Source: a phage. From it: a stretch of 64,000 bases of DNA. Location of the stretch: assembly GCA_026188615.1 (NCBI GenBank), contig GCA_026188615.1_4525.1. One strand, given 5' to 3'. Of the stretch, positions 20,541 through 54,508 are shown piece after piece. Positions within the stretch are counted from its first letter, which is position 1. Each line of letters begins with the position of its first letter. The translations under genes and the position numbers were made by a program. The notes under the pieces were generated by a model. The model ran no database searches. It was not told the DNA's origin and saw only the letters and a list, made by a program, of their open reading frames with translations.

Positions 20541-21235
20541 TTAGAATCCTTAAATTTACATTTATCATAATGCCATCTTAGAGCATTGCCTTTATTAACT
20601 TTCTTGCCACAATGCGGACAAGGTGGATATTCAGTACTTTGCTTAGTTCTCAAAGAAATCAAATCACGAGTTTCTTTAGTATGAGGAACATCTCTTGTTG
20701 GAGATATTGTACCATACATAGGATTAAGCACACCTAGTTTAGCTTTTGCTATATTCTTTTTGGCTTCATCTGATTTAGGTTTTCTCATCTTTTTCTTAGT
20801 TTCTTCACTTTTAGCCCTTCCTTTGGTTGCCGCCGATATTTTGTGCTTGGTTTCTTCTGTTAAATGTAGGCCTGTTTTCGCTTTTGAAATTTTCAGTCTT
20901 GTTTCTTCAGAAATGACCATACCTTTGCGAAATTGTGAATTTAACTTCTTTGCATGGGCATATATTTTAGAATGAACTTTATAATGTCGTTTCTTGGTTC
21001 CTTTCATATTGCACATCATGAAAAATGCGAATATAACAGATTTTATCGGATAAATCTTTGATAAAATAGCATGTGCTATAAAATGCTCTCTAGCTGTTAA
21101 TTCAACTAAATTTTCTTTATCATCAGAACCTCCTAAACATCTAGGAACTATATGATGAGTCTCTTTATATTCGGATAAAGGTTCCCGAGCCTTAGCCCGG
21201 GAAATTAGGTCGTTATAGATTTTTTGATAATTCAT
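20537..21235 (-). CDS. mobE: free-standing HNH homing endonuclease, MobE-like
   Basis: 232 aa; HNH motif ETHHIVPRCLGGSDDKENLVELTAREH; repeated basic NUMOD-like K.SEETK..IS.A units; sits between nrdA and nrdB as mobE does in T4. Confidence 0.7.
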   Translation of the reverse strand: MNYQKIYNDLISRAKAREPLSEYKETHHIVPRCLGGSDDKENLVELTAREHFIAHAILSKIYPIKSVIFAFFMMCNMKGTKKRHYKVHSKIYAHAKKLNSQFRKGMVISEETRLKISKAKTGLHLTEETKHKISAATKGRAKSEETKKKMRKPKSDEAKKNIAKAKLGVLNPMYGTISPTRDVPHTKETRDLISLRTKQSTEYPPCPHCGKKVNKGNALRWHYDKCKFKDSK

Positions 21236-35717: not shown

Positions 35718-38700
35718 ATGGCTACTTTAAAACAAATACAATTTAAAAGAAGCAAAACTGCAGGAGCACGTCCTGCCGCTTCAGTATTAGCCGAAGGTGA
35801 ATTGGCTATAAACTTAAAAGACCGTGTACTTTTTACTAAAGATGACCAAGGAAATATTATTGATCTGGGTTTTGCTAAAGGTGGTAGTATTGACGGGAAT
35901 GTTATTCATACTGGCAATTATAACCAAACTGGCGATTATACTTTAAATGGCACCTTCACTCAGACAGGTGATTTTAATTTAACCGGTATTGCTCGAGTAA
36001 CTCGTGATATTATTGCCGCTGGGCAGATTACGACTGAAGGCGGAGAACTTATTACAAAAAGTTCAGGTACAGCACATGTTCGTTTTCATGATTCGGCTGA
36101 TCGTGAACGTGGCATTATTTATTCACCGGCTAATGATGGATTAACTACGCAAGTAGTTAATATCCGCGTTAAAGACTACGCCGCTGGTGATGAAAGCACC
36201 TATGCATTTTCGGGCAGTGGACTATTTACTTCACCTGAAGTATCAGCATGGAAATCTATGTCAACTCCTCAGATTTTGACAAATAGAGTTATTACTAATA
36301 ATAAATCTACGAGTGATTATGACATTTATTCTATGGCAGACAACGTTCCATTGTCTGAAAGCACTACTGCTATTAATCATCTCCGTGTTATGCGCAATGC
36401 TGTAGGCGCTGGTGTATTCCATGAAGTTAAAGATAATGATGGAATAACTTGGTATACTGGAGATGGCTTAGACACTTATCTTTGGTCGTTTACCTGGTCC
36501 GGTGGATTGAAAGCTGGTCATTCTATTTCTGTTGGTACTCCTGGTGGCAATAAAGGATACTCTGAATTAGGGACTGCTTCAATTTCTCTTGGCGATAATT
36601 ATACCGGGCTAAAATGGCATCAGGATGGATATTTTTTTACGGTAAACAACGGTACAAAAACTTTCCTTTCTGGTCCGGCGGAAACCACTAGCCTTAGAAA
36701 AATGGTTATGGGTTATTCTGTAAATGGTACTGATTTGACTACTCCTCCAACTGAAAACTATGCTCTTGCTACTGTTGTGACATATCACGATAATAACGCG
36801 TTTGGAGATGGTCAGACTCTTTTGGGATATTATCAAGGCGGTAATTATCATCACTATTTCCGTGGTAAGGGTACCACAAACATTAATACTCATGGTGGTT
36901 TGTTGGTTACTCCAGGTAATATTGATGTTATTGGCGGTTCTGTTAATATAGATGGTAGAAATAATTCTTCTACACTAATGTTTAGAGGCAACACAACAGG
37001 ATACAGCTCGGTTGATAATATGGATATTAAAGTTTGGGGTAATACGTTTGTTGATCCAAGCGGAGGTATCCGTAAAAACATTATGGAAATTTCTGATGCA
37101 ACTAGCTGGATGAGCTATATTCAAAGACTTACTACTGGCGAAGTAGAAATGAACGTTAATGGTTCATTTGAATCATCTGGTGTTACTGCTGGAGATAGAG
37201 GAGTTCACACAACAGGTGAAATTTCATCCGGAGCAGTGAATGCTCTTCGTATTTGGAACGCAGATTATGGAGCCATTTTTAGACGTTCAGAAGGAAGTCT
37301 TCATATTATTCCAACTGCTTATGGCGAAGGCAAAGATGGCGATATCGGTCCACTTCGCCCGTTTAGTATGGCTTTAGATACCGGTAAAGTTACTATTCCA
37401 GATTTACAATCGAGCTACAATACGTTCGCTGCTAACGGTTATATTAAATTTGTTGGTCATGGCGCTGCCGCAGGTGGATATGATATTCAATATGCCCAAG
37501 CGGCTCCTATTTTCCAGGAAATTGATGATGATGCTGTAAGCAAATATTATCCTATTGTTAAACAGAAGTTTTTAAATGGTAAAGCCGTTTGGTCTTTAGG
37601 TACTGAAATTAATTCGGGTACATTTGTTTTACACCATATCAAAGAAGATGGATCACAAGGACATACATCTCGTTTTAATCAAGACGGCACAGTTAATTTC
37701 CCTGATAATGTTCAGGTTGGTGGTGGTGAAGCTACTATTGCTCGCAACGGTAACATCTGGTCTGATATCTGGAAAACGTTTACTTCAGCAGGAGACACCA
37801 CAAATATTCGCGATGCAATAGCTACCCGTGTTTCTAAAGAAGGCGACACGATGACCGGCCGCTTAACCCTTAAAACCAACTCAGATGCTGTTGTTATCGA
37901 TTATCCGGCAGATGAAGCGGGTTATGTTAAGGGTAAAAAAGGTGGTGTTGATAACTGGTATGTAGGTAATGGTGGTGCTGATAACGGTTTAGCTTTCTGG
38001 AGCTTCCAATCCCAAGGTGGTATTAATATCAACCCGAACGGTGAAGTTATTCTGGCGCCGCAAGGTGTTGCAATAGTCAATATAAACCGCGACCGTATTC
38101 ATATGAATGGTTCCAACTGGATTGCACATAAATCTGGCGCATGGGGCGACCAATGGGGCTTAGAAGCACCTTATTTCCTTGATTTTGGTAGCGTTGGCGA
38201 AGACAGTTATTATCCTATCATTAAAGGCAGATCTGTAATTAGTGGTCAAGGATATACTACTTCTGTTGACCTTGGTATTAGACGTACACCTCAAGCATGG
38301 GGACAAGCGATAATTCGAGTTGGTAATGCCGGAGGCGCTGACGGTCCTGTGGGTATTTTTGAATTCCATTCGTCTGGACTATTCTATAGCCCTAATATGG
38401 TTCAAACTCCGGCAATTGGTGTTGGTACTGCTAATGGACTTGGTGCTCCAAGTATTGCAATCGGTGATAATGACACGGGCTTATCACATGGTGGTGATGG
38501 TCGAATTAACATGGTTGCCAATGGTATACATATTGCAAACTGGGGAGCAGGCTATCAATCTCATCCTGGGCTTTGGGATTCAACTGGTGCTTTTTGGACA
38601 GAAACCGGAAGAGCTATCGTTTCTCATGGCCATTTAGTTCAGGCGAATGACAGCTATTCAACGTTTGTCCGTGATGTTTATGTCCGCTCTGATATTCGTG

Positions 38701-39023
38701 TTAAAAAGAACCTCGTTAAATTTGAAAATGCTTCTCAGAAGCTTTCTAAAATTAACGGTTACACTTATATGCAGAAACGTGGAACAGATGAAGAAGGTAA
38801 TCAGAAATGGGAACCTAACGCTGGTTTGATAGCTCAAGAAGTTCAAGCTATTTTACCAGAATTAGTTGAAGGCGACCCGGATGGTGAATCTTTACTTCGT
38901 TTAAACTATAACGGTGTAATTGGTTTAAATACAGCTGCAATCAATGAGCATACCGCAGAAATTGCAGAACTTAAGTCAGAGATTGAAGAGCTTAAAAAAT
39001 TAGTTAAATCATTGTTAAAATAA
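35718..39023 (+). CDS. 37: long tail fibre distal subunit gp37, T2-type with C-terminal intramolecular chaperone (peptidase S74-like) domain
   Basis: 1101 aa; C-terminal ~110 aa show S74 hallmarks SDIRVKKN...GYTYMQK...[13 protein letters not shown]...LNYNGVIGL; followed by gp38 adhesin. Confidence 0.9.
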
Positions 39024-39026
39024 TAA

Positions 39027-39044
39027 GAGGGGCTTCGGCCTCTT
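39027..39044 (+). other. RNA hairpin with UUCG loop between genes 37 and 38 (no U-run; likely not a full terminator)
   Basis: GAGGGGC-TTCG-GCCTCTT stem-loop immediately before gene 38 RBS. Confidence 0.35.
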
Positions 39045-39054
39045 GGAGGTTTAT

Positions 39055-39828
39055 ATGGCAGTTGAAGGACCGTGGGTAGGATGGTCTGCAAGGGTACAGA
39101 CTGGAGATCCTTGGATGGGTGGTGCCGCACAGAGATTGAGAATGGGAATTCCGTTTTGGATGAGTAATATGATAGGACGATCTGTTGAAGTAATTCACAC
39201 ACTTGGAGCAGACCATAACTTCAATGGTCAATGGTTCCGAGATAGATGTTTTGAAGCCGGCGGTGCTCCTATAGTGTTTAATATCACAGGCAACTTAGTA
39301 TCATATAGTAAAGATGTTCCATTATTCTTTATGTATGGCGATACGCCAAACGAATATGTTACTTTGAATATTCATGGTGGAGTTCATATGTGGGGACGAG
39401 GTGGTAACGGTACTGTAAACGGAAACCCAGGCACAAATGGCGGCGATGTAATCCAAAATGATATCGGCGGAAGACTTCGTATTTGGAACTATGGCGTTAT
39501 TGCATCAGGCGGTGGTGGTGGTGGTGCAGTGTCATTACAGAATAGCTGGGCGCCAAATGCTACAGCAGGTGGCGGTGGTGGTAGACCATTTGGCCTCGGC
39601 GGCGGTGGCGTTAATTGGCCGGGTGGTAATGCTAGTTATGACGCCCCGGGCGGTGCCGGTTACACTTCCCAATTCGGCGGAGGCAATGGTGGTGATGCTG
39701 GAGGTCGGGGCGGAGATGGATGGGGTAATCACTTATCTAGATCTGGCGGTGGTGCTCCTGGCAGAGCAGTATTCGGAAGTTCACCGTCATGGGGTGCTAC
39801 AGGCACAATCTACGGCTCCTGGATTTAA
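39055..39828 (+). CDS. 38: gp38 receptor-binding adhesin, T2-type with glycine-rich motifs
   Basis: ~257 aa from Met with GGAGG RBS; conserved N-terminal blocks [54 protein letters not shown]; multiple poly-Gly runs. Confidence 0.85.
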
Positions 39829-48228: not shown

Positions 48229-50442
48229 TTATTTGGCCGCTTCCACGGCCTTCATGAATTTAACGATTTGAGCGACCTGTTCTTTTGAAAGAGTACCACG
48301 TCGTCCCATGTATTCTGACACAATATGATAATTGATTTCGAATTCAATAACCATTTTATCATCATTATCGTAAGCATTATCTTTAAGCTTATCGAAAATT
48401 TTAGCACATAATTCTAACTTCTTATTCAGGTCTCTGTTATCAGCACCTGCGAATCGATTCCATCCCCAGCGATTATTTACTGTTGAGAGTTTTGCAAAGT
48501 CTTTACTGATTTCTTTGTTCTTAGAGCTAAAATACTTACTAAGGAAGTTAAGCTCTTCATTACGAGTAATATGGTTTAGATAGGGTTGTGCTCTACGACT
48601 TGGTGATACATACTCATCATAATCTACTTTATCGATTAGCGTAATATAGTCATTAATTGATTTTTCGAACAAGCATTCTACTTCACCAAGTTTACGAACT
48701 TTCTTAGCAATCTGTGGGCGAACTACAGTGAACTCTTTAATACCTGATAAATCGGCAATACGGGTCAAGAAATTGGAGTCGTAGTTCAACCAACCTTTAT
48801 CTGCGTCAAGACATTCAGCATTAGAACGATTACGAACTATAACATAACCTTGGATTTCATCTGCTTCACTTGCCGGAATAAAGAGATCTTCTGATACCCA
48901 AACATCGTTTTCATTCTTAAAGAACCGATGAGCACTTGGGGATTTAGGACGAGGCTGCGATGAACGTTCTTTAACTTCAATCCATGGTTTAACCAATGCA
49001 AGAATTTCAGAGGTCTTATAAAATTTAAGGCTATCACCAGCGAAAATAACCTTTAATCGTTCCAGAAGTTTCATTGCAACTTCATCTTCCGGGTTAATGA
49101 ATAATACGCTACTACCCCATCCAGAAGGAACCTTATCAACGAGTGTTGATGCATCAGTGGAAGTCAAAGCATCGTTCAGAGCACGCATCATTGGTACGCG
49201 GCCTTTCACATCGTCAATAACGATATCAATATGCTTACGACTAATACCTAGCAGGCTATTAATTGAAATAGTTGCAGACGAGCTTCCGCTTTCACGAATA
49301 CGACGAAGTCGTGGGTTTGAAACGATATCATATACAACGCCAAGGTTGCACCATTCAGGTCCCATTTTAAAACGTTTGTACAACTCAGAATAAGTTAGTT
49401 GTTCTTTAGAGTATTTCAGTGATTCAATATTAGAACCGGCTTTTTCCATATATTTACGAGCAGAGTAACCAAGAGAATCGATTTCACGGAATACATGACG
49501 TGGATATTCACAATCAATCCATTTCTTAGAATCTTCAGCAAATAATTTTGCATCGATTTCTGCAACGCGTTTATGGATATTTGCTACTGTACGTTTATCA
49601 AATGACAATGCTTCACGAGACGGGGCTACATCTAGTTCACCCATAGGGAATTTAATATAAGCTGTAGTGCATCGTGTCATCATCCAGGTTTGTTCTTTAA
49701 TAACACTTCCGATTGGATATACAATACCACCATAAACAGCCATGATATTACCACGTTCACCCCATGGAGCTTCCTTGGCTAAATAAACATCATCGAATTC
49801 CGGGAAGTATTTGATATCTTTAACACCGCGAACTTCTGCAATATCACCTAGAGGACGCATAACATATGCAATTTCAGATGCGAACTTTTCAAAATCTTCT
49901 GGGTTAACCGGTACAACTACTTCAACGCCGGTCCGGTCATCAGGACCCATCTTATCTACGAAGGTTGGCTTAATCTGTGGACCAGTGTCATCTTGGTAGA
50001 TTACGTAACCACGAACTTCGCCATTATGATAAGAAGTAATGTTAAACGTATCGGTATATGCTAGTGGAGCTTTAGAGCCGAGTCCGAATCCACCAATGAA
50101 ATCGTTACTCGATGTTTTAGTTGAAGCAAAATATGAGTTATAGATTCCTGGCTCTTCATCATTACCTCGAATGGTGAAATCACTCATACCAGGACCAAAG
50201 TCTCGAACTACAAAACGTGGGTCTAAACGACCTGGTGCCTGAACAATAAACTTATCAGTGCAACCATTAAGAATTTGTCCATCGATACAGTTGGTGATTA
50301 ATTCACGTACACAAGCCAATTCTTTGTTTGTATAAAGGTCATTAGACAAAATCTTATAAACTTTGCTATTGCCTTGAATAGTGAATGCTGTGCTCTTACC
50401 GCCTGAACCAATAATCGTTTCTTTAGCCGTTTCAATAATCAT
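48229..50442 (-). CDS. rIIA: rIIA (rapid-lysis / RexAB-exclusion protector)
   Basis: 737 aa (T4 rIIA 725); adjacent to rIIB. Confidence 0.85.
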   Translation of the reverse strand: MIIETAKETIIGSGGKSTAFTIQGNSKVYKILSNDLYTNKELACVRELITNCIDGQILNGCTDKFIVQAPGRLDPRFVVRDFGPGMSDFTIRGNDEEPGIYNSYFASTKTSSNDFIGGFGLGSKAPLAYTDTFNITSYHNGEVRGYVIYQDDTGPQIKPTFVDKMGPDDRTGVEVVVPVNPEDFEKFASEIAYVMRPLGDIAEVRGVKDIKYFPEFDDVYLAKEAPWGERGNIMAVYGGIVYPIGSVIKEQTWMMTRCTTAYIKFPMGELDVAPSREALSFDKRTVANIHKRVAEIDAKLFAEDSKKWIDCEYPRHVFREIDSLGYSARKYMEKAGSNIESLKYSKEQLTYSELYKRFKMGPEWCNLGVVYDIVSNPRLRRIRESGSSSATISINSLLGISRKHIDIVIDDVKGRVPMMRALNDALTSTDASTLVDKVPSGWGSSVLFINPEDEVAMKLLERLKVIFAGDSLKFYKTSEILALVKPWIEVKERSSQPRPKSPSAHRFFKNENDVWVSEDLFIPASEADEIQGYVIVRNRSNAECLDADKGWLNYDSNFLTRIADLSGIKEFTVVRPQIAKKVRKLGEVECLFEKSINDYITLIDKVDYDEYVSPSRRAQPYLNHITRNEELNFLSKYFSSKNKEISKDFAKLSTVNNRWGWNRFAGADNRDLNKKLELCAKIFDKLKDNAYDNDDKMVIEFEINYHIVSEYMGRRGTLSKEQVAQIVKFMKAVEAAK

Positions 50443-50454
50443 ATTTTTCTCTCA

Positions 50455-50655
50455 TCACAAGTTACGTTTAAAAATTTCTGCCACTTCGAGAAGTTCTTCT
50501 TTAGTAGCTGTATCGGTTTGTATTTTATATCGAATTTCTTTAAAGCGTTCTTTAAAGGACTCTGCTGACTCGATATCAAAAAATCTTTGGATAAGCCGGA
50601 ATTCCCGGAGCACCGCTTTATCAAAAAGTTCCAAGTCCACGTTATATGTTCTCAT
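50455..50655 (-). CDS. hypothetical small protein (rIIA.1 position)
   Basis: 66-aa ORF just upstream of rIIA. Confidence 0.45.
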   Translation of the reverse strand: MRTYNVDLELFDKAVLREFRLIQRFFDIESAESFKERFKEIRYKIQTDTATKEELLEVAEIFKRNL

Positions 50656-50747: not shown

Positions 50748-51848
50748 TTACGCTGTGAAGATTTTATCCCACATCGCAACAACTGCATCTCGGTTATACT
50801 TCTTCCATACTGCTTCAGCACGTTTAACTCGAGCTTCGTATGTGTCAGTGAATTCTAATACAGCTTTTGTGTAAAGCGCAACTACTTCTTTCTTAGGAGT
50901 AGAGGAATCAATTTCTACACGCACAGTATCTGGGTCGTATTCAAATGTCGCATGAGGATAATCCTTAAAAACTAACTGAATTACAGGGACACCTTTAGAG
51001 ATGGCTTCAATAGAACTATTCTCTACCGTACCTGTGTCAGGACACGTATTAATAAGTGCTTTAGCTGTTTTAAGGCGTTCCATGATTTCACTGTGTGGAG
51101 CATCAATAATAACAGGATATTTAGCCGGTGGCACCCATTTGCTTGGACAGTATCCTGCACCATTTTCGCCTAGTGCTTTAATCGCTTCAAGAGCAACATC
51201 AGTACGACGCATTTTAGTGTCATAACGTTGTGCACTAATAATCAGATCCGTCGCCGGAAGAACTTCAGGTTTCTCATTCAAACAAATAACCGGATAATCT
51301 TCGGCTTCAAACAACGGATTTGCTCGCCAATAATCATAATCAATTTTGTCAGTCAGACCTGAAGTCATATAACAATATTTGCGTTCAAATTCACGGAAGG
51401 CTTTAGTAGGAGCATAACTCTTACCACCATTCTTATGAATTTGAATAGTCTGGTCCCAAATTTGAACAATGCCACGAGATACCGGTTCAAATGGTGTTGC
51501 CATAAAATTCTTATGAACTTTAGAGAGACCCGCGTCTTTAATTGCCTGAACGGTTAGTTTGGTCGGTTCCATTGTAACAACGAAATCGTACTCATTAATG
51601 CCGGCTAGTTCAACAATCTTACGAGCCATAGTATAACTCATACCTAGACTGAATTTAGTCAGATGACCAACAGGATGATGATTAACCTTCCAATCACCAA
51701 ATGTGTCATTATCAAAGCCGATATAATCAATATCAGCGCCGGTGGACACAAGATATTTCAACACATTTAAATGTACTGCTTCAAGACCACCTTGTACACG
51801 GTCAGGATTAAATGGGACTGCACGAGACGGGATAAACATAACTTTCAT
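50748..51848 (-). CDS. putative glycosyltransferase (GT-B-like), candidate DNA hydroxymethylcytosine-sugar transferase
   Basis: 366 aa; N-terminal MKVMFIPSRA..GGLEAVHLNVLKYL and C-terminal ENSSIEAISKGVPVIQL resemble GT-B/GT4 motifs; occupies the gene 60 position of T4. Confidence 0.55.
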   Translation of the reverse strand: MKVMFIPSRAVPFNPDRVQGGLEAVHLNVLKYLVSTGADIDYIGFDNDTFGDWKVNHHPVGHLTKFSLGMSYTMARKIVELAGINEYDFVVTMEPTKLTVQAIKDAGLSKVHKNFMATPFEPVSRGIVQIWDQTIQIHKNGGKSYAPTKAFREFERKYCYMTSGLTDKIDYDYWRANPLFEAEDYPVICLNEKPEVLPATDLIISAQRYDTKMRRTDVALEAIKALGENGAGYCPSKWVPPAKYPVIIDAPHSEIMERLKTAKALINTCPDTGTVENSSIEAISKGVPVIQLVFKDYPHATFEYDPDTVRVEIDSSTPKKEVVALYTKAVLEFTDTYEARVKRAEAVWKKYNRDAVVAMWDKIFTA

Positions 51849-51874
51849 AATTAAGCCTTATTAAAATTAAAATG

Positions 51875-51892
51875 AAGCTCCCGAAGGAGCTT
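51875..51892 (-). terminator. hairpin AAGCUCC-UUCG-GGAGCUU between HNH ORF and glycosyltransferase
   Basis: 7-bp stem with CGAA loop on plus strand; A-rich upstream. Confidence 0.45.
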
Positions 51893-52688
51893 AGGACATC
51901 CAACACATTTTATAACCTTTGCAGGTTCTGTTAGGATTATTTAATGCTTTCAATATATTAGAAGACCCTATATCTAAATACTCCCTTAATTCATAAAGAT
52001 AGTTAAAATCAATAGTTTCACCTGTTTTTACACTTGTGATTCTTATAGGCCTTCTTTCATATTTAGATTTATACAACTCTCTAGTCTTAGCTTTAGTTTC
52101 TTCCGACCTAGGAGTGTATGGTTTAAATCCTTTTGTTTTAAATGTTTCCATTCTTGATTTAGTTATTTTATCCTGGTGTTCTTTTGTTTTTACAGGTGCT
52201 TTTCGCCCATTCTCCCAAGATAACTTGTTGGCCTGTATTATTTTATCTATTGCTTCTTGCGTATGAGTTTTACCATAAAATGGATTTAATTCGCCTATAC
52301 GTTGTGAAGCAATATGTGACATTAATTCTCTTGTTGCTTTAGTATGTTTTTTACCTTTAAATGGATTGCCATTTTTAGCAATCCATTCTTTCATAAATCT
52401 AGAGTGCTCTTTAGAGAATTCTTGTTTAAGCCAATCATAATCTCTAGAATTTCTAGCTCCCATGTAAAAAGCTCTAATAGCCATAAGCATAGAACGGTTC
52501 TTATGAATTTTATAAAGCAATAAATGGGCGATAAAATGCTCTCTAGGGGTCAATTTAACTAGATTTGATTTAGCATTACTCCCGCCCATAGATTTTGGCA
52601 ATATATGATGCGTCTCAGTATAATTAGGAATAATGCTGCGGTTTTTAGCCGCAGCGATAAGTTTATCATAAATTTTACGATAATTCAT
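51891..52688 (-). CDS. free-standing HNH homing endonuclease (MobA-like, intact)
   Basis: ~265 aa from MNYRKIYDKL start overlapping gene 39 stop; HNH motif ETHHILPKSMGGSNAKSNLVKLTPREH; basic repeat-rich C-terminus. Confidence 0.7.
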   Translation of the reverse strand: MNYRKIYDKLIAAAKNRSIIPNYTETHHILPKSMGGSNAKSNLVKLTPREHFIAHLLLYKIHKNRSMLMAIRAFYMGARNSRDYDWLKQEFSKEHSRFMKEWIAKNGNPFKGKKHTKATRELMSHIASQRIGELNPFYGKTHTQEAIDKIIQANKLSWENGRKAPVKTKEHQDKITKSRMETFKTKGFKPYTPRSEETKAKTRELYKSKYERRPIRITSVKTGETIDFNYLYELREYLDIGSSNILKALNNPNRTCKGYKMCWMS

Positions 52689-54508
52689 TATCCTAGCATC
52701 CAATCTTTACGGAGTTCAGGGTCGTTACCCATGAGCATTTCAAATAGTTCTTTCCAATTTTCAGGAAGTTTAACTACGTCGTACACAGGGTTTTGAATCA
52801 TTTCTTTATATTCATCTCGCTGAAGTGAGCCTAATCCCTTGATGTATCGAATACTATGCTTAGGAAGTGTATCTTTAGCTTCTTCATACTCAGCTACAGT
52901 ATAAAACCATTTTTGAGTTTTGCCAATTTGTGCAATAATTACAGGCGTTTTAACAAAGCGAATACGTCCTTGTTCAAACAATTCAGGCCAATTACTAAAG
53001 AAAGCAAGCAAAGCCGGATAGATACTTCCAAGACCGTCATGATCGGCATCGGTCATAATTGCAATATTACGATAGTTCGTATTCTCTGCCTTTTCACCAA
53101 GAATAAGACCTGTGATAGCACAGATATCAAAGAGCTCTTTGTTCTTCATCATATCAGCATATGACATACCCCAGCTATTCATCACCTTACCACGTAATGG
53201 GAATCCGCCGTGTAGTTCACGGTCACGAACATCAATGAGATAACCAATTGCCGAATCACCTTCTGTTAAAAACAATGTCGTATCTGCATCTTTACCACAT
53301 TGGTTAGCTTTAATATGCTTATGAACCTTAGCTTTAGTTGCCTTTTTAGCTGCTTTAGTTTCTGCAGCCTTTTCTGCTGCCAATTTACGAGCTAATGCTG
53401 CTTCAACAATAGGCATAATCAAGGCTTCGTTTTTAAGAAGTGCCTGAGCAATTTTCTTAGCATCTAATTGGATATGATTACGAATATCACCATACGTTGA
53501 CGTTAAACGTTCTTTAGTCTGAGAATCAAAACGCATGTTGCTCATGTCTCTAATAAACATCAACATTGTGAGGCATTCTTTAACACGAGCTTTAGTGACT
53601 TCAATACCCTTATATTTCTTTTTAATACCCGGTAAAAGATGTTCGCAGATATCATCCATTACACATTCAACATGATGACCACCATTTTTAGTATGGATGT
53701 TATTCACATAAGTTAAATGACGGAAGCCATCTGGTGATGTTGTGAATGCTATAGAGACTTTATCATTTTCTTGAATGATGTTATCTTCACCAAATTGTTT
53801 AGCAAATCGTTTAAAATTACCATCAACCTTTTTACCATTAAATGTGAACTTGATATCAGGATAAACGACTGCCAATGTTTGAAGTCGGTCTAAAGTAATA
53901 TCTAAATAAATTTGAGATAAATTATGCTCTTCAAATGAAGAGAAATCAGGAGTGAAGATTACTTTAGTGCCTTTACCTTTAGATTTCTTAGAAGACCATG
54001 ATTTGTTTTCCATTCCGTTTGAACAGTTAACAGTGATTTCATTTTCGCCATCTGACGTGATGCCTGTAAACAAAGTAGAGAAGATATTAGTTAAACTACT
54101 CCCGACGCCGTTCATACCGCCAGTCTTGCGTTCAGAATCATCACCAAAGTTACCACCAGCCTTTGGAATAGTCCAGGCTGCTACAGGCCCAGGAATTTGT
54201 TCACCTGTTTGGTCAGTAACTAAACCTTGAGGAATACCACGTCCGTTATCTTCCACCGAAACTTGATTATTTTTAATTTGCACATCAATTTTATTTGCAA
54301 ACTTAAATGATGTACGAATAGCTTCATCAACCGAGTTGTCAATAATCTCATCGATTAATTTAACCAGACCAGGAACATATTCAACTTGTTGATATTTACC
54401 AAACAAAAAACGCTCATGGGCTTCTTTAGCAGAAGAACCAATATACATGCCACTACGTTTCTTAATATGTTCTACATCTGACAGTACCTTAATTTCATTT
54501 TTAATCAT
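52688..54508 (-). CDS. 39: DNA topoisomerase II large subunit gp39 (GyrB-like), unsplit form
   Basis: 606 aa single ORF; GHKL ATPase-like N-terminus (..DNGRGIP..); no separate gene 60. Confidence 0.85.
   Translation of the reverse strand: MIKNEIKVLSDVEHIKKRSGMYIGSSAKEAHERFLFGKYQQVEYVPGLVKLIDEIIDNSVDEAIRTSFKFANKIDVQIKNNQVSVEDNGRGIPQGLVTDQTGEQIPGPVAAWTIPKAGGNFGDDSERKTGGMNGVGSSLTNIFSTLFTGITSDGENEITVNCSNGMENKSWSSKKSKGKGTKVIFTPDFSSFEEHNLSQIYLDITLDRLQTLAVVYPDIKFTFNGKKVDGNFKRFAKQFGEDNIIQENDKVSIAFTTSPDGFRHLTYVNNIHTKNGGHHVECVMDDICEHLLPGIKKKYKGIEVTKARVKECLTMLMFIRDMSNMRFDSQTKERLTSTYGDIRNHIQLDAKKIAQALLKNEALIMPIVEAALARKLAAEKAAETKAAKKATKAKVHKHIKANQCGKDADTTLFLTEGDSAIGYLIDVRDRELHGGFPLRGKVMNSWGMSYADMMKNKELFDICAITGLILGEKAENTNYRNIAIMTDADHDGLGSIYPALLAFFSNWPELFEQGRIRFVKTPVIIAQIGKTQKWFYTVAEYEEAKDTLPKHSIRYIKGLGSLQRDEYKEMIQNPVYDVVKLPENWKELFEMLMGNDPELRKDWMLG

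Follow-up and report, generated by a model that had tools for sequence, protein, structure and literature searches.

Gene order between gene 39 and rIIA

The stretch of phage DNA analyzed here, referred to as the window, is 64,000 nucleotides long. Its minus strand carries gene 39, a homing endonuclease gene, a 366-aa ORF, rIIA.1, rIIA and rIIB, in that order. The positions of these features are summarized in Table 1. A first-pass annotation had placed a glycosyltransferase-like ORF of 366 aa between rIIA and gene 39, and the ORF listing reproduces its coordinates exactly. The gene is intact, and it is not a chance reading frame because full-length homologs (35-44% identity) and approximately 160 Mosigvirus copies exist. 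The glycosyltransferase gene is indeed an occupant of the interval; however, it shares the interval with an intact 265-aa homing endonuclease gene, which the first-pass annotation had omitted.

Table 1. Features of the window discussed in the text.
Feature	Position	Strand	Basis or remark
DAHP synthase gene, 330 aa	11716-12705	minus	NCBIfam aroFGH equivalog, 428 bits (cut-off 173)
Second Mob-like HNH/NUMOD3 ORF	20783-21235	minus	~151 aa matched
Distal tail-fibre module	35718-39828	plus	gene 37 about 32% identical to phi25-307
rIIA	48229-50442	minus	gene-order listing
rIIA.1, downstream boundary	50455..50655	minus	Pfam T4_RIIA1, E 2e-30
GT-B glycosyltransferase ORF, 366 aa	50748..51848	minus	ORF listing, ATG start; ortholog of RB69 ORF003c/gp3
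Glycosyltransferase gene leader	51849..51893	minus	sequence read and terminator-like scan match
Ribosome-binding site in leader	51860-51856	minus	TAAGG
Hairpin and T-rich run in leader	51892-51875	minus	UUCG loop
Upstream-ORF stop codon in leader	51893-51891	minus	
Mob-type HNH/NUMOD3 homing endonuclease gene, 265 aa	51891..52688	minus	Pfam NUMOD3 and sub-threshold HNH; PHROG 655, E 2e-57
Endonuclease cassette	51891-52703	minus	flanked by TGGATG direct repeat
Hairpins resembling the leader hairpin	52635-52655; 54558-54573		
Gene 39, unsplit topoisomerase II large subunit, 606 aa, upstream boundary	52688..54508	minus	HATPase_c, DNA_gyraseB, Toprim, TOPRIM_C

Gene 39 had been read as a single ORF of 606 aa, and alignment to T4 genes 39 and 60 agrees. 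Residues 1-474 align with T4 gene 39 at 79% identity, and residues 473-604 align with both of the T4 gene 60 pieces that flank the translational bypass. Gene 39 in the window is the unsplit equivalent of T4 genes 39 and 60. The T4 record has the layout rIIA.1, gene 60 with its bypass, 60.1, a defective mobA and gene 39, which verifies the earlier statement that gene 60 and mobA lie in this interval in T4.

The endonuclease ORF lies upstream of the glycosyltransferase gene, inserted at the extreme 3' end of gene 39, and its ATG overlaps the gene 39 stop codon (TAATG). It is 46% identical to the N-terminus of T4 MobB, and it shares 53% identity over 45 aa with the defective mobA region, which in T4 is found between genes 39 and 60. 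Since the cassette is bounded by the TGGATG repeat, the stop codon used by the endonuclease ORF is the ancestral one of gene 39, as seen in RB69 (...TGG ATG TCC TAA). The C-terminus of gene 39 reads ...WMLG in the window and ...WMS in RB69. The cassette is missing from RB69 and from those relatives that cover only 89% of a 7-kb query. A second Mob-like ORF, 37-47% identical to T4 MobC and MobB, is found in the nrdB-nrdA region of the window, where identity to the relative falls to 84%.

The leader of the glycosyltransferase gene contains a hairpin (AAGCTCC-TTCG-GGAGCTT) followed by a T-rich run, and its ribosome-binding site lies 8 nt ahead of the ATG. In RB69 the same 42-nt leader is found between gene 39 and ORF003c, with the hairpin conserved base for base. 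The hairpin may have a function in the leader. Terminator-like sites are enriched in the stretch around the glycosyltransferase gene (7 found versus 2.2 expected), and two further hairpins resemble the one in the leader (Table 1). Sigma-70-like promoter sites near the gene show no excess, with 13 found versus 15.8 expected in shuffled sequence.

A narrow family with a GT-B fold

The ORF is the ortholog of RB69 ORF003c (RB69p003, gp3, NP_861693.1), to which it is identical at 362 of 366 positions over the full length. Both genes have the same length, an identical leader and the same site downstream of gene 39 and upstream of rIIA.1. The proteins differ by four amino-acid substitutions. ORF003c and gene 39 are adjacent in RB69, whereas in the window they are separated by the Mob-type endonuclease cassette. 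The copy in Mosigvirus NP is 98.9% identical to the ORF.

Members of this family occur in about 212 records, which comprise Mosigvirus and Acinetobacter phages and one Tegunavirus. Among annotated phage genomes, approximately 160 Escherichia and Shigella phage records of the genus Mosigvirus carry it at 95-99.5% identity, with a single family member at one place per record. Another 55 records are from Acinetobacter T4-like phages, each of which has two copies at about 43% identity. When 1.84 billion representative proteins were searched exhaustively with a profile, only 11 family members were returned, and a word-indexed search of 5.8 billion proteins returned 5 clusters. The ORF003c family is very narrow. 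Most GenBank records label its members "hypothetical protein" and some use phosphatidylinositol mannosyltransferase. Three more full-length members (P0008, P0009 and P0010) are 35-39% identical to the ORF and to each other. Shigella phage JK45 (MK962757.1, 2501-4104) has a full-length glycosyltransferase gene and, after it, a 411-nt ORF in which the C-terminal part of the gene recurs; this partial tandem duplication also takes in the intergenic spacer. The taxonomy line of JK45 reads Tequatrovirus, yet the locus is of Mosigvirus type. In LH01 (PP434429) the gene is in two pieces, which may reflect a frameshift.

Curated sequence models fail to recognize the ORF003c family. Scanning the ORF with Pfam and NCBIfam yielded zero matches even at E <= 1, and PHROG 8302, which matches positions 1-366 of 366 (E 1e-221), is annotated as "unknown function". 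Distant family members give sub-threshold matches only, to GT4-conflict (E 0.003) and Glyco_trans_1_4 (E 0.013). The former is the Pfam model for glycosyltransferases of conflict systems; the sub-threshold matches to it are from P0010 (E 0.003) and from the gp76-like P0006 (E 0.07).

Structural comparison is more informative than these models. Searched against solved structures, the family profile matches only PDB 9IQZ and 9IR0 (E 5e-196). These entries, released on 2025-07-16, are the apo form and the UDP complex of the "phage HY126 glycosyltransferase", a protein that is 98% identical to the ORF and differs from it by a few substitutions only. An AlphaFold (AF2) model of the ORF was built from an 11-sequence alignment (pLDDT 90.5, pTM 0.86); it replaced an earlier model from a 6-sequence alignment in which the N-domain was unresolved (pLDDT 59.8). 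The model superposes on 9IQZ at TM 0.97 and 1.2 A and on the UDP complex at TM 0.94. The next structural matches are two-Rossmann GT-B enzymes of GT4 type, e.g. tetrahydrobiopterin glucosyltransferase, PimA, BshA, MshA and WaaG (Foldseek TM 0.6-0.69), and sucrose-phosphate synthase is also among the nearest folds. Identity to T4 alpha-glucosyltransferase (PDB 1Y6F), PimA, BshA, MshA, WaaG and sucrose-phosphate synthase is 10-14%. The ORF thus has a GT-B fold with a UDP-binding site, and GT4 enzymes are its nearest structural neighbours. The first reading had noticed GT-B-like signatures at both ends of the protein; the model, the profile search and the UDP-bound protein bear this out, while Pfam and NCBIfam are silent.

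The residues that are invariant in the family are G20-G21, R208/R214, E276/E281-A-I-S-x-G-x-P-V and H299/E303/D305. These residues presumably cluster at the positions where GT4 enzymes bind the nucleotide sugar. GT4 enzymes have the acidic motif E-x7-E in their C-terminal part. The ORF family instead has E-x4-E (E276, E281) followed by A-I-S-x-G-x-P-V, a candidate equivalent of E-x7-E. The same invariant residues are kept in two homologs from Acinetobacter phage DLP3, gp76 and gp77.

Arabinose chemistry and the proposed second transfer

Arabinose was found in RB69 DNA by Thomas et al., who proposed ORF003c as the arabinosyltransferase with a GT-B fold predicted by HHpred and Phyre2 (Thomas et al., 2018; PMC6024577). 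Cytosine in RB69 is fully replaced by 5-hydroxycytosine bearing one or two D-arabinofuranoses, and the disaccharide was determined by NMR to be beta-D-Araf-(1->3)-alpha-D-Araf-O5-dC (Lee et al., 2026; PMC13326640). In the same work the first, alpha-linked arabinose is assigned to gp46:47, which is encoded inside the sugar cluster. Gp3 is proposed as "beta-arabinosyltransferase 2", and its table entry is putative and does not carry the mark of experimental confirmation (PMC13326640). Mosigvirus DNA contains arabinosyl-5-hydroxycytosine that is mostly di-arabinosylated, and glucosyl-hmC is absent from it according to the literature. The ratio of mono- to di-arabinosyl-dC in Mosigvirus NP is 1:4 (Readshaw et al., 2026). 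According to citing papers, the DNA of the Mosigvirus phages Bas46 and Bas47 is doubly arabinosylated, and deletion of the arabinosyltransferase Aat in Bas46 is reported to have sensitized this phage to a defence system. The sugar of the phage DNA has been proposed to derive from ribulose-5-phosphate.

Homologs of the ORF are physically associated with the arabinosylation genes in Acinetobacter phages. In DLP2 and DLP3 two homologs lie in tandem within the cluster, the order of which is A5P isomerase, kinase/nucleotidyltransferase, phosphatase, thymidylate-synthase-like 5hodCMP synthase, first transferase, thymidylate-kinase-like gene, gp77 and gp76. Full-length identity of the ORF is 43% to DLP3 gp77 and 41% to gp76. 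Since gp76 and gp77 share 57% identity and a neighbour-joining tree puts the Mosigvirus enzyme outside the entire Acinetobacter clade, the ORF is co-orthologous to both. A one-to-one equivalence with gp77 has been proposed in the literature and was downgraded to co-orthology by the paralog identity and the tree. Transfer of function from either paralog is indirect for the same reason. Purified gp76 and gp77 together with UDP-Araf add a third arabinose to RB69 DNA through a beta-1,5 linkage, and each alone is inactive (PMC13326640). DLP3 has a tandem pair in the arabinose cluster that is jointly needed for the third sugar, whereas the only copy in Mosigvirus has been relocated to the interval between rIIA and gene 39, and Mosigvirus DNA carries no more than two sugars.

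The nearest full-genome relative of the window is phi25-307 (97.5% identical over 7 kb), which has a complete arabinose cluster between uvsX and gene 43. A tblastn search of the 64-kb window did not find genes for 5hodCMP synthase, the first arabinosyltransferase or UDP-arabinose synthesis (all E > 0.2), a result that agrees with the extent of the window and does not argue for their absence from the genome. Judging by collinearity with relatives, the rest of the arabinose pathway should lie outside the window.

The distribution of the two transferase families differs. The first transferase (RB69 gp46:47 type) is unrelated to the ORF in sequence (E 1.7) and occurs in 349 phage records from many genera, including Mosigvirus, JS10/Bp7-type coliphages and phages of Klebsiella, Enterobacter, Kosakonia, Providencia, Serratia and Acinetobacter. 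A transferase shared by all arabinosylating phages would fit an initiating role. Restriction to lineages reported to have two or three arabinoses, as in the ORF family (Mosigvirus and Acinetobacter phages, plus one Tegunavirus), fits chain extension, as would be anticipated for an accessory enzyme.

The reading we favor, with a probability of roughly 0.8, is that the ORF is the Mosigvirus ortholog of RB69 ORF003c/gp3 that adds the second arabinose to arabinosyl-5-hydroxycytosine DNA. Replication with 5-hydroxy-dCTP would put 5-hydroxycytosine in place of cytosine, and the first alpha-D-Araf would be attached by a different, cluster-encoded transferase of gp46:47 type whose gene would lie outside the window. 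The ORF enzyme, predicted to be a soluble GT4-like GT-B protein, would bind UDP-Araf in its C-terminal domain and add the second Araf at O3 of the first, DNA-linked sugar. The product would be beta-D-Araf-(1->3)-alpha-D-Araf-O5-deoxycytidine, the major modified base of RB69-type virion DNA, and the bulkier disaccharide could alter which restriction, glycosylase and CRISPR systems are able to attack the DNA. That this particular enzyme performs the step from mono- to di-arabinosyl on DNA is suggested by analogy with its homologs, and the DLP3 assay suggests that it acts on polymeric DNA. Gp3 itself would probably carry out the transfer alone. Since each DLP3 enzyme is inactive singly, the lone Mosigvirus enzyme might nevertheless depend on a partner or on a substrate in a particular state.

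The stereochemistry of the second transfer may be unusual, and it counts against the favored reading. All close structural neighbours of the ORF are retaining enzymes of GT4, GT5 and GT20 types, whereas the linkage proposed for the product of the ORF is beta. The two arabinoses have opposite anomeric configurations by published NMR, the first being alpha and the second beta (PMC13326640). If a single UDP-D-Araf donor supplies both sugars, the two phage transferases must differ, with one retaining and the other inverting; PMC13326640 contains no discussion of retaining versus inverting chemistry. A tentative proposal, to which we give rather low odds, is that the ORF family is an inverting DNA-directed furanosyltransferase on a retaining-type scaffold and that it might also work as an oligomer. 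The unusual chemistry is suggested because the neighbours are understood to be retaining and the acidic motif is shortened to E-x4-E, and the oligomer because DLP3 gp76 and gp77 are active only together.

Alternative functions and consequences for the phage

Several other functions can be weighed against the second-arabinose reading. The 2018 proposal for RB69 ORF003c amounts to an initiating role, in which the enzyme places the first arabinose onto the base. Thomas et al. named the protein "the" arabinosyltransferase from the GT-B fold evidence (PMC6024577), and no direct assay of gp3 activity was found in the literature searched. However, the cluster already has an unrelated gp46:47-type transferase beside the 5hodCMP synthase, and many of the genera among the 349 records of that type have no ORF003c homolog. 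The mono-arabinosylated phage Thanatos has the first-type transferase only, no single DLP3 transferase is active on bare 5hoC DNA, and the homologs of the ORF extend an existing chain in vitro (PMC13326640). An initiating role is therefore unlikely. The joint requirement for gp76 and gp77 also raises the question of whether the ORF enzyme depends catalytically on another transferase, or is a mere structural partner of one, so that the di-arabinosyl step needs a complex. Chain labels in the 9IQZ entry reach H, i.e. there are multiple copies in the entry, which is in line with such a complex. Against it, Mosigvirus records have one family member each and yet the DNA is mostly di-arabinosylated, the nucleotide-sugar-site residues are all invariant and the near-identical protein binds UDP. 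This dependence is quite unlikely for the Mosigvirus enzyme.

A target other than DNA, e.g. a host envelope component or a protein, could be read from the nearest folds, as the substrates of PimA, WaaG, BshA and sucrose-phosphate synthase are lipids, LPS and small molecules, and from the phosphatidylinositol mannosyltransferase label in some GenBank records; we consider it highly improbable. The lead guess of the first-pass annotation was the second-glucose transferase of T2/T6-type phages (beta-glucosyl-HMC alpha-glucosyltransferase, ba-gt) or another glucosyl-hmC enzyme. Nothing spoke for it except the second-sugar analogy and the T2-type gp38 adhesin in the window, and it can practically be dismissed. 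[quoted passage not shown] All three identities were rejected for lack of sequence similarity, and the earlier remark that the protein matches neither T4 enzyme was correct at the sequence level. The locus differs as well, with T6 ba-gt between uvsX and 42 and the ORF between rIIA.1 and 39. Homologs of T6 ba-gt, T4 alpha-gt, T4 beta-gt and T4 dCMP hydroxymethylase were searched for in the 64-kb window and none was found, and in phi25-307 the loci that hold alpha-gt and beta-gt in T4 contain neither gene. The literature on Mosigvirus DNA, cited above, names arabinofuranose and 5-hydroxycytosine. The broader idea of a GT-B enzyme that adds a second sugar to DNA survives by analogy, and the family, the sugar and the base had been misjudged. 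T2/T6 ba-gt (ggt) and the proposed second arabinosyltransferase share the logic of a second transferase that lengthens a monosaccharide on modified cytosine to a disaccharide. They differ in sequence, length, locus, sugar (glucose versus arabinofuranose) and base (hmC versus 5-hydroxyC).

Whether a T4-like phage has di-arabinosyl-5-hydroxycytosine or glucosyl-hmC affects which host defences are escaped and which are still effective. Cited papers report that arabinosylated DNA is shielded from type II restriction, the Brig1 glycosylase and type I CRISPR-Cas, and that BrxU, of the GmrSD family, still cuts it. The type of modification also affects cutting, cloning and nanopore sequencing of phage DNA and the behaviour of phages in therapy cocktails. 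An ORF003c-type gene is a convenient genus-level marker of arabinose chemistry in Mosigvirus. The finding itself is already known: a near-identical gene was first described in 2018, its role was reassigned in 2025-2026, and a crystal structure is available. As most GenBank records read "hypothetical protein", the practical value lies in correct annotation and not in discovery.

The adhesin that had prompted the glucose proposal is present, as gene 38 in the window encodes a true gp38 adhesin of T2 type (Pfam GP38, E 6e-83; also Gp38_N). It does not predict the type of DNA modification, because phi25-307 has another fibre tip and the same glycosyltransferase. Gene 38 of phi25-307 is annotated as tail fiber assembly protein (TfaE), and no match to it was found in the window. 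Around the divergent fibre module the genome is 86-97% identical, which points to a swap of the host-range module. Elsewhere in the window, a gene for 3-deoxy-7-phosphoheptulonate (DAHP) synthase adjoins the dCMP deaminase gene. The enzyme, which draws on the pentose-phosphate and PEP pools, is 98% identical to the phi25-307 copy.
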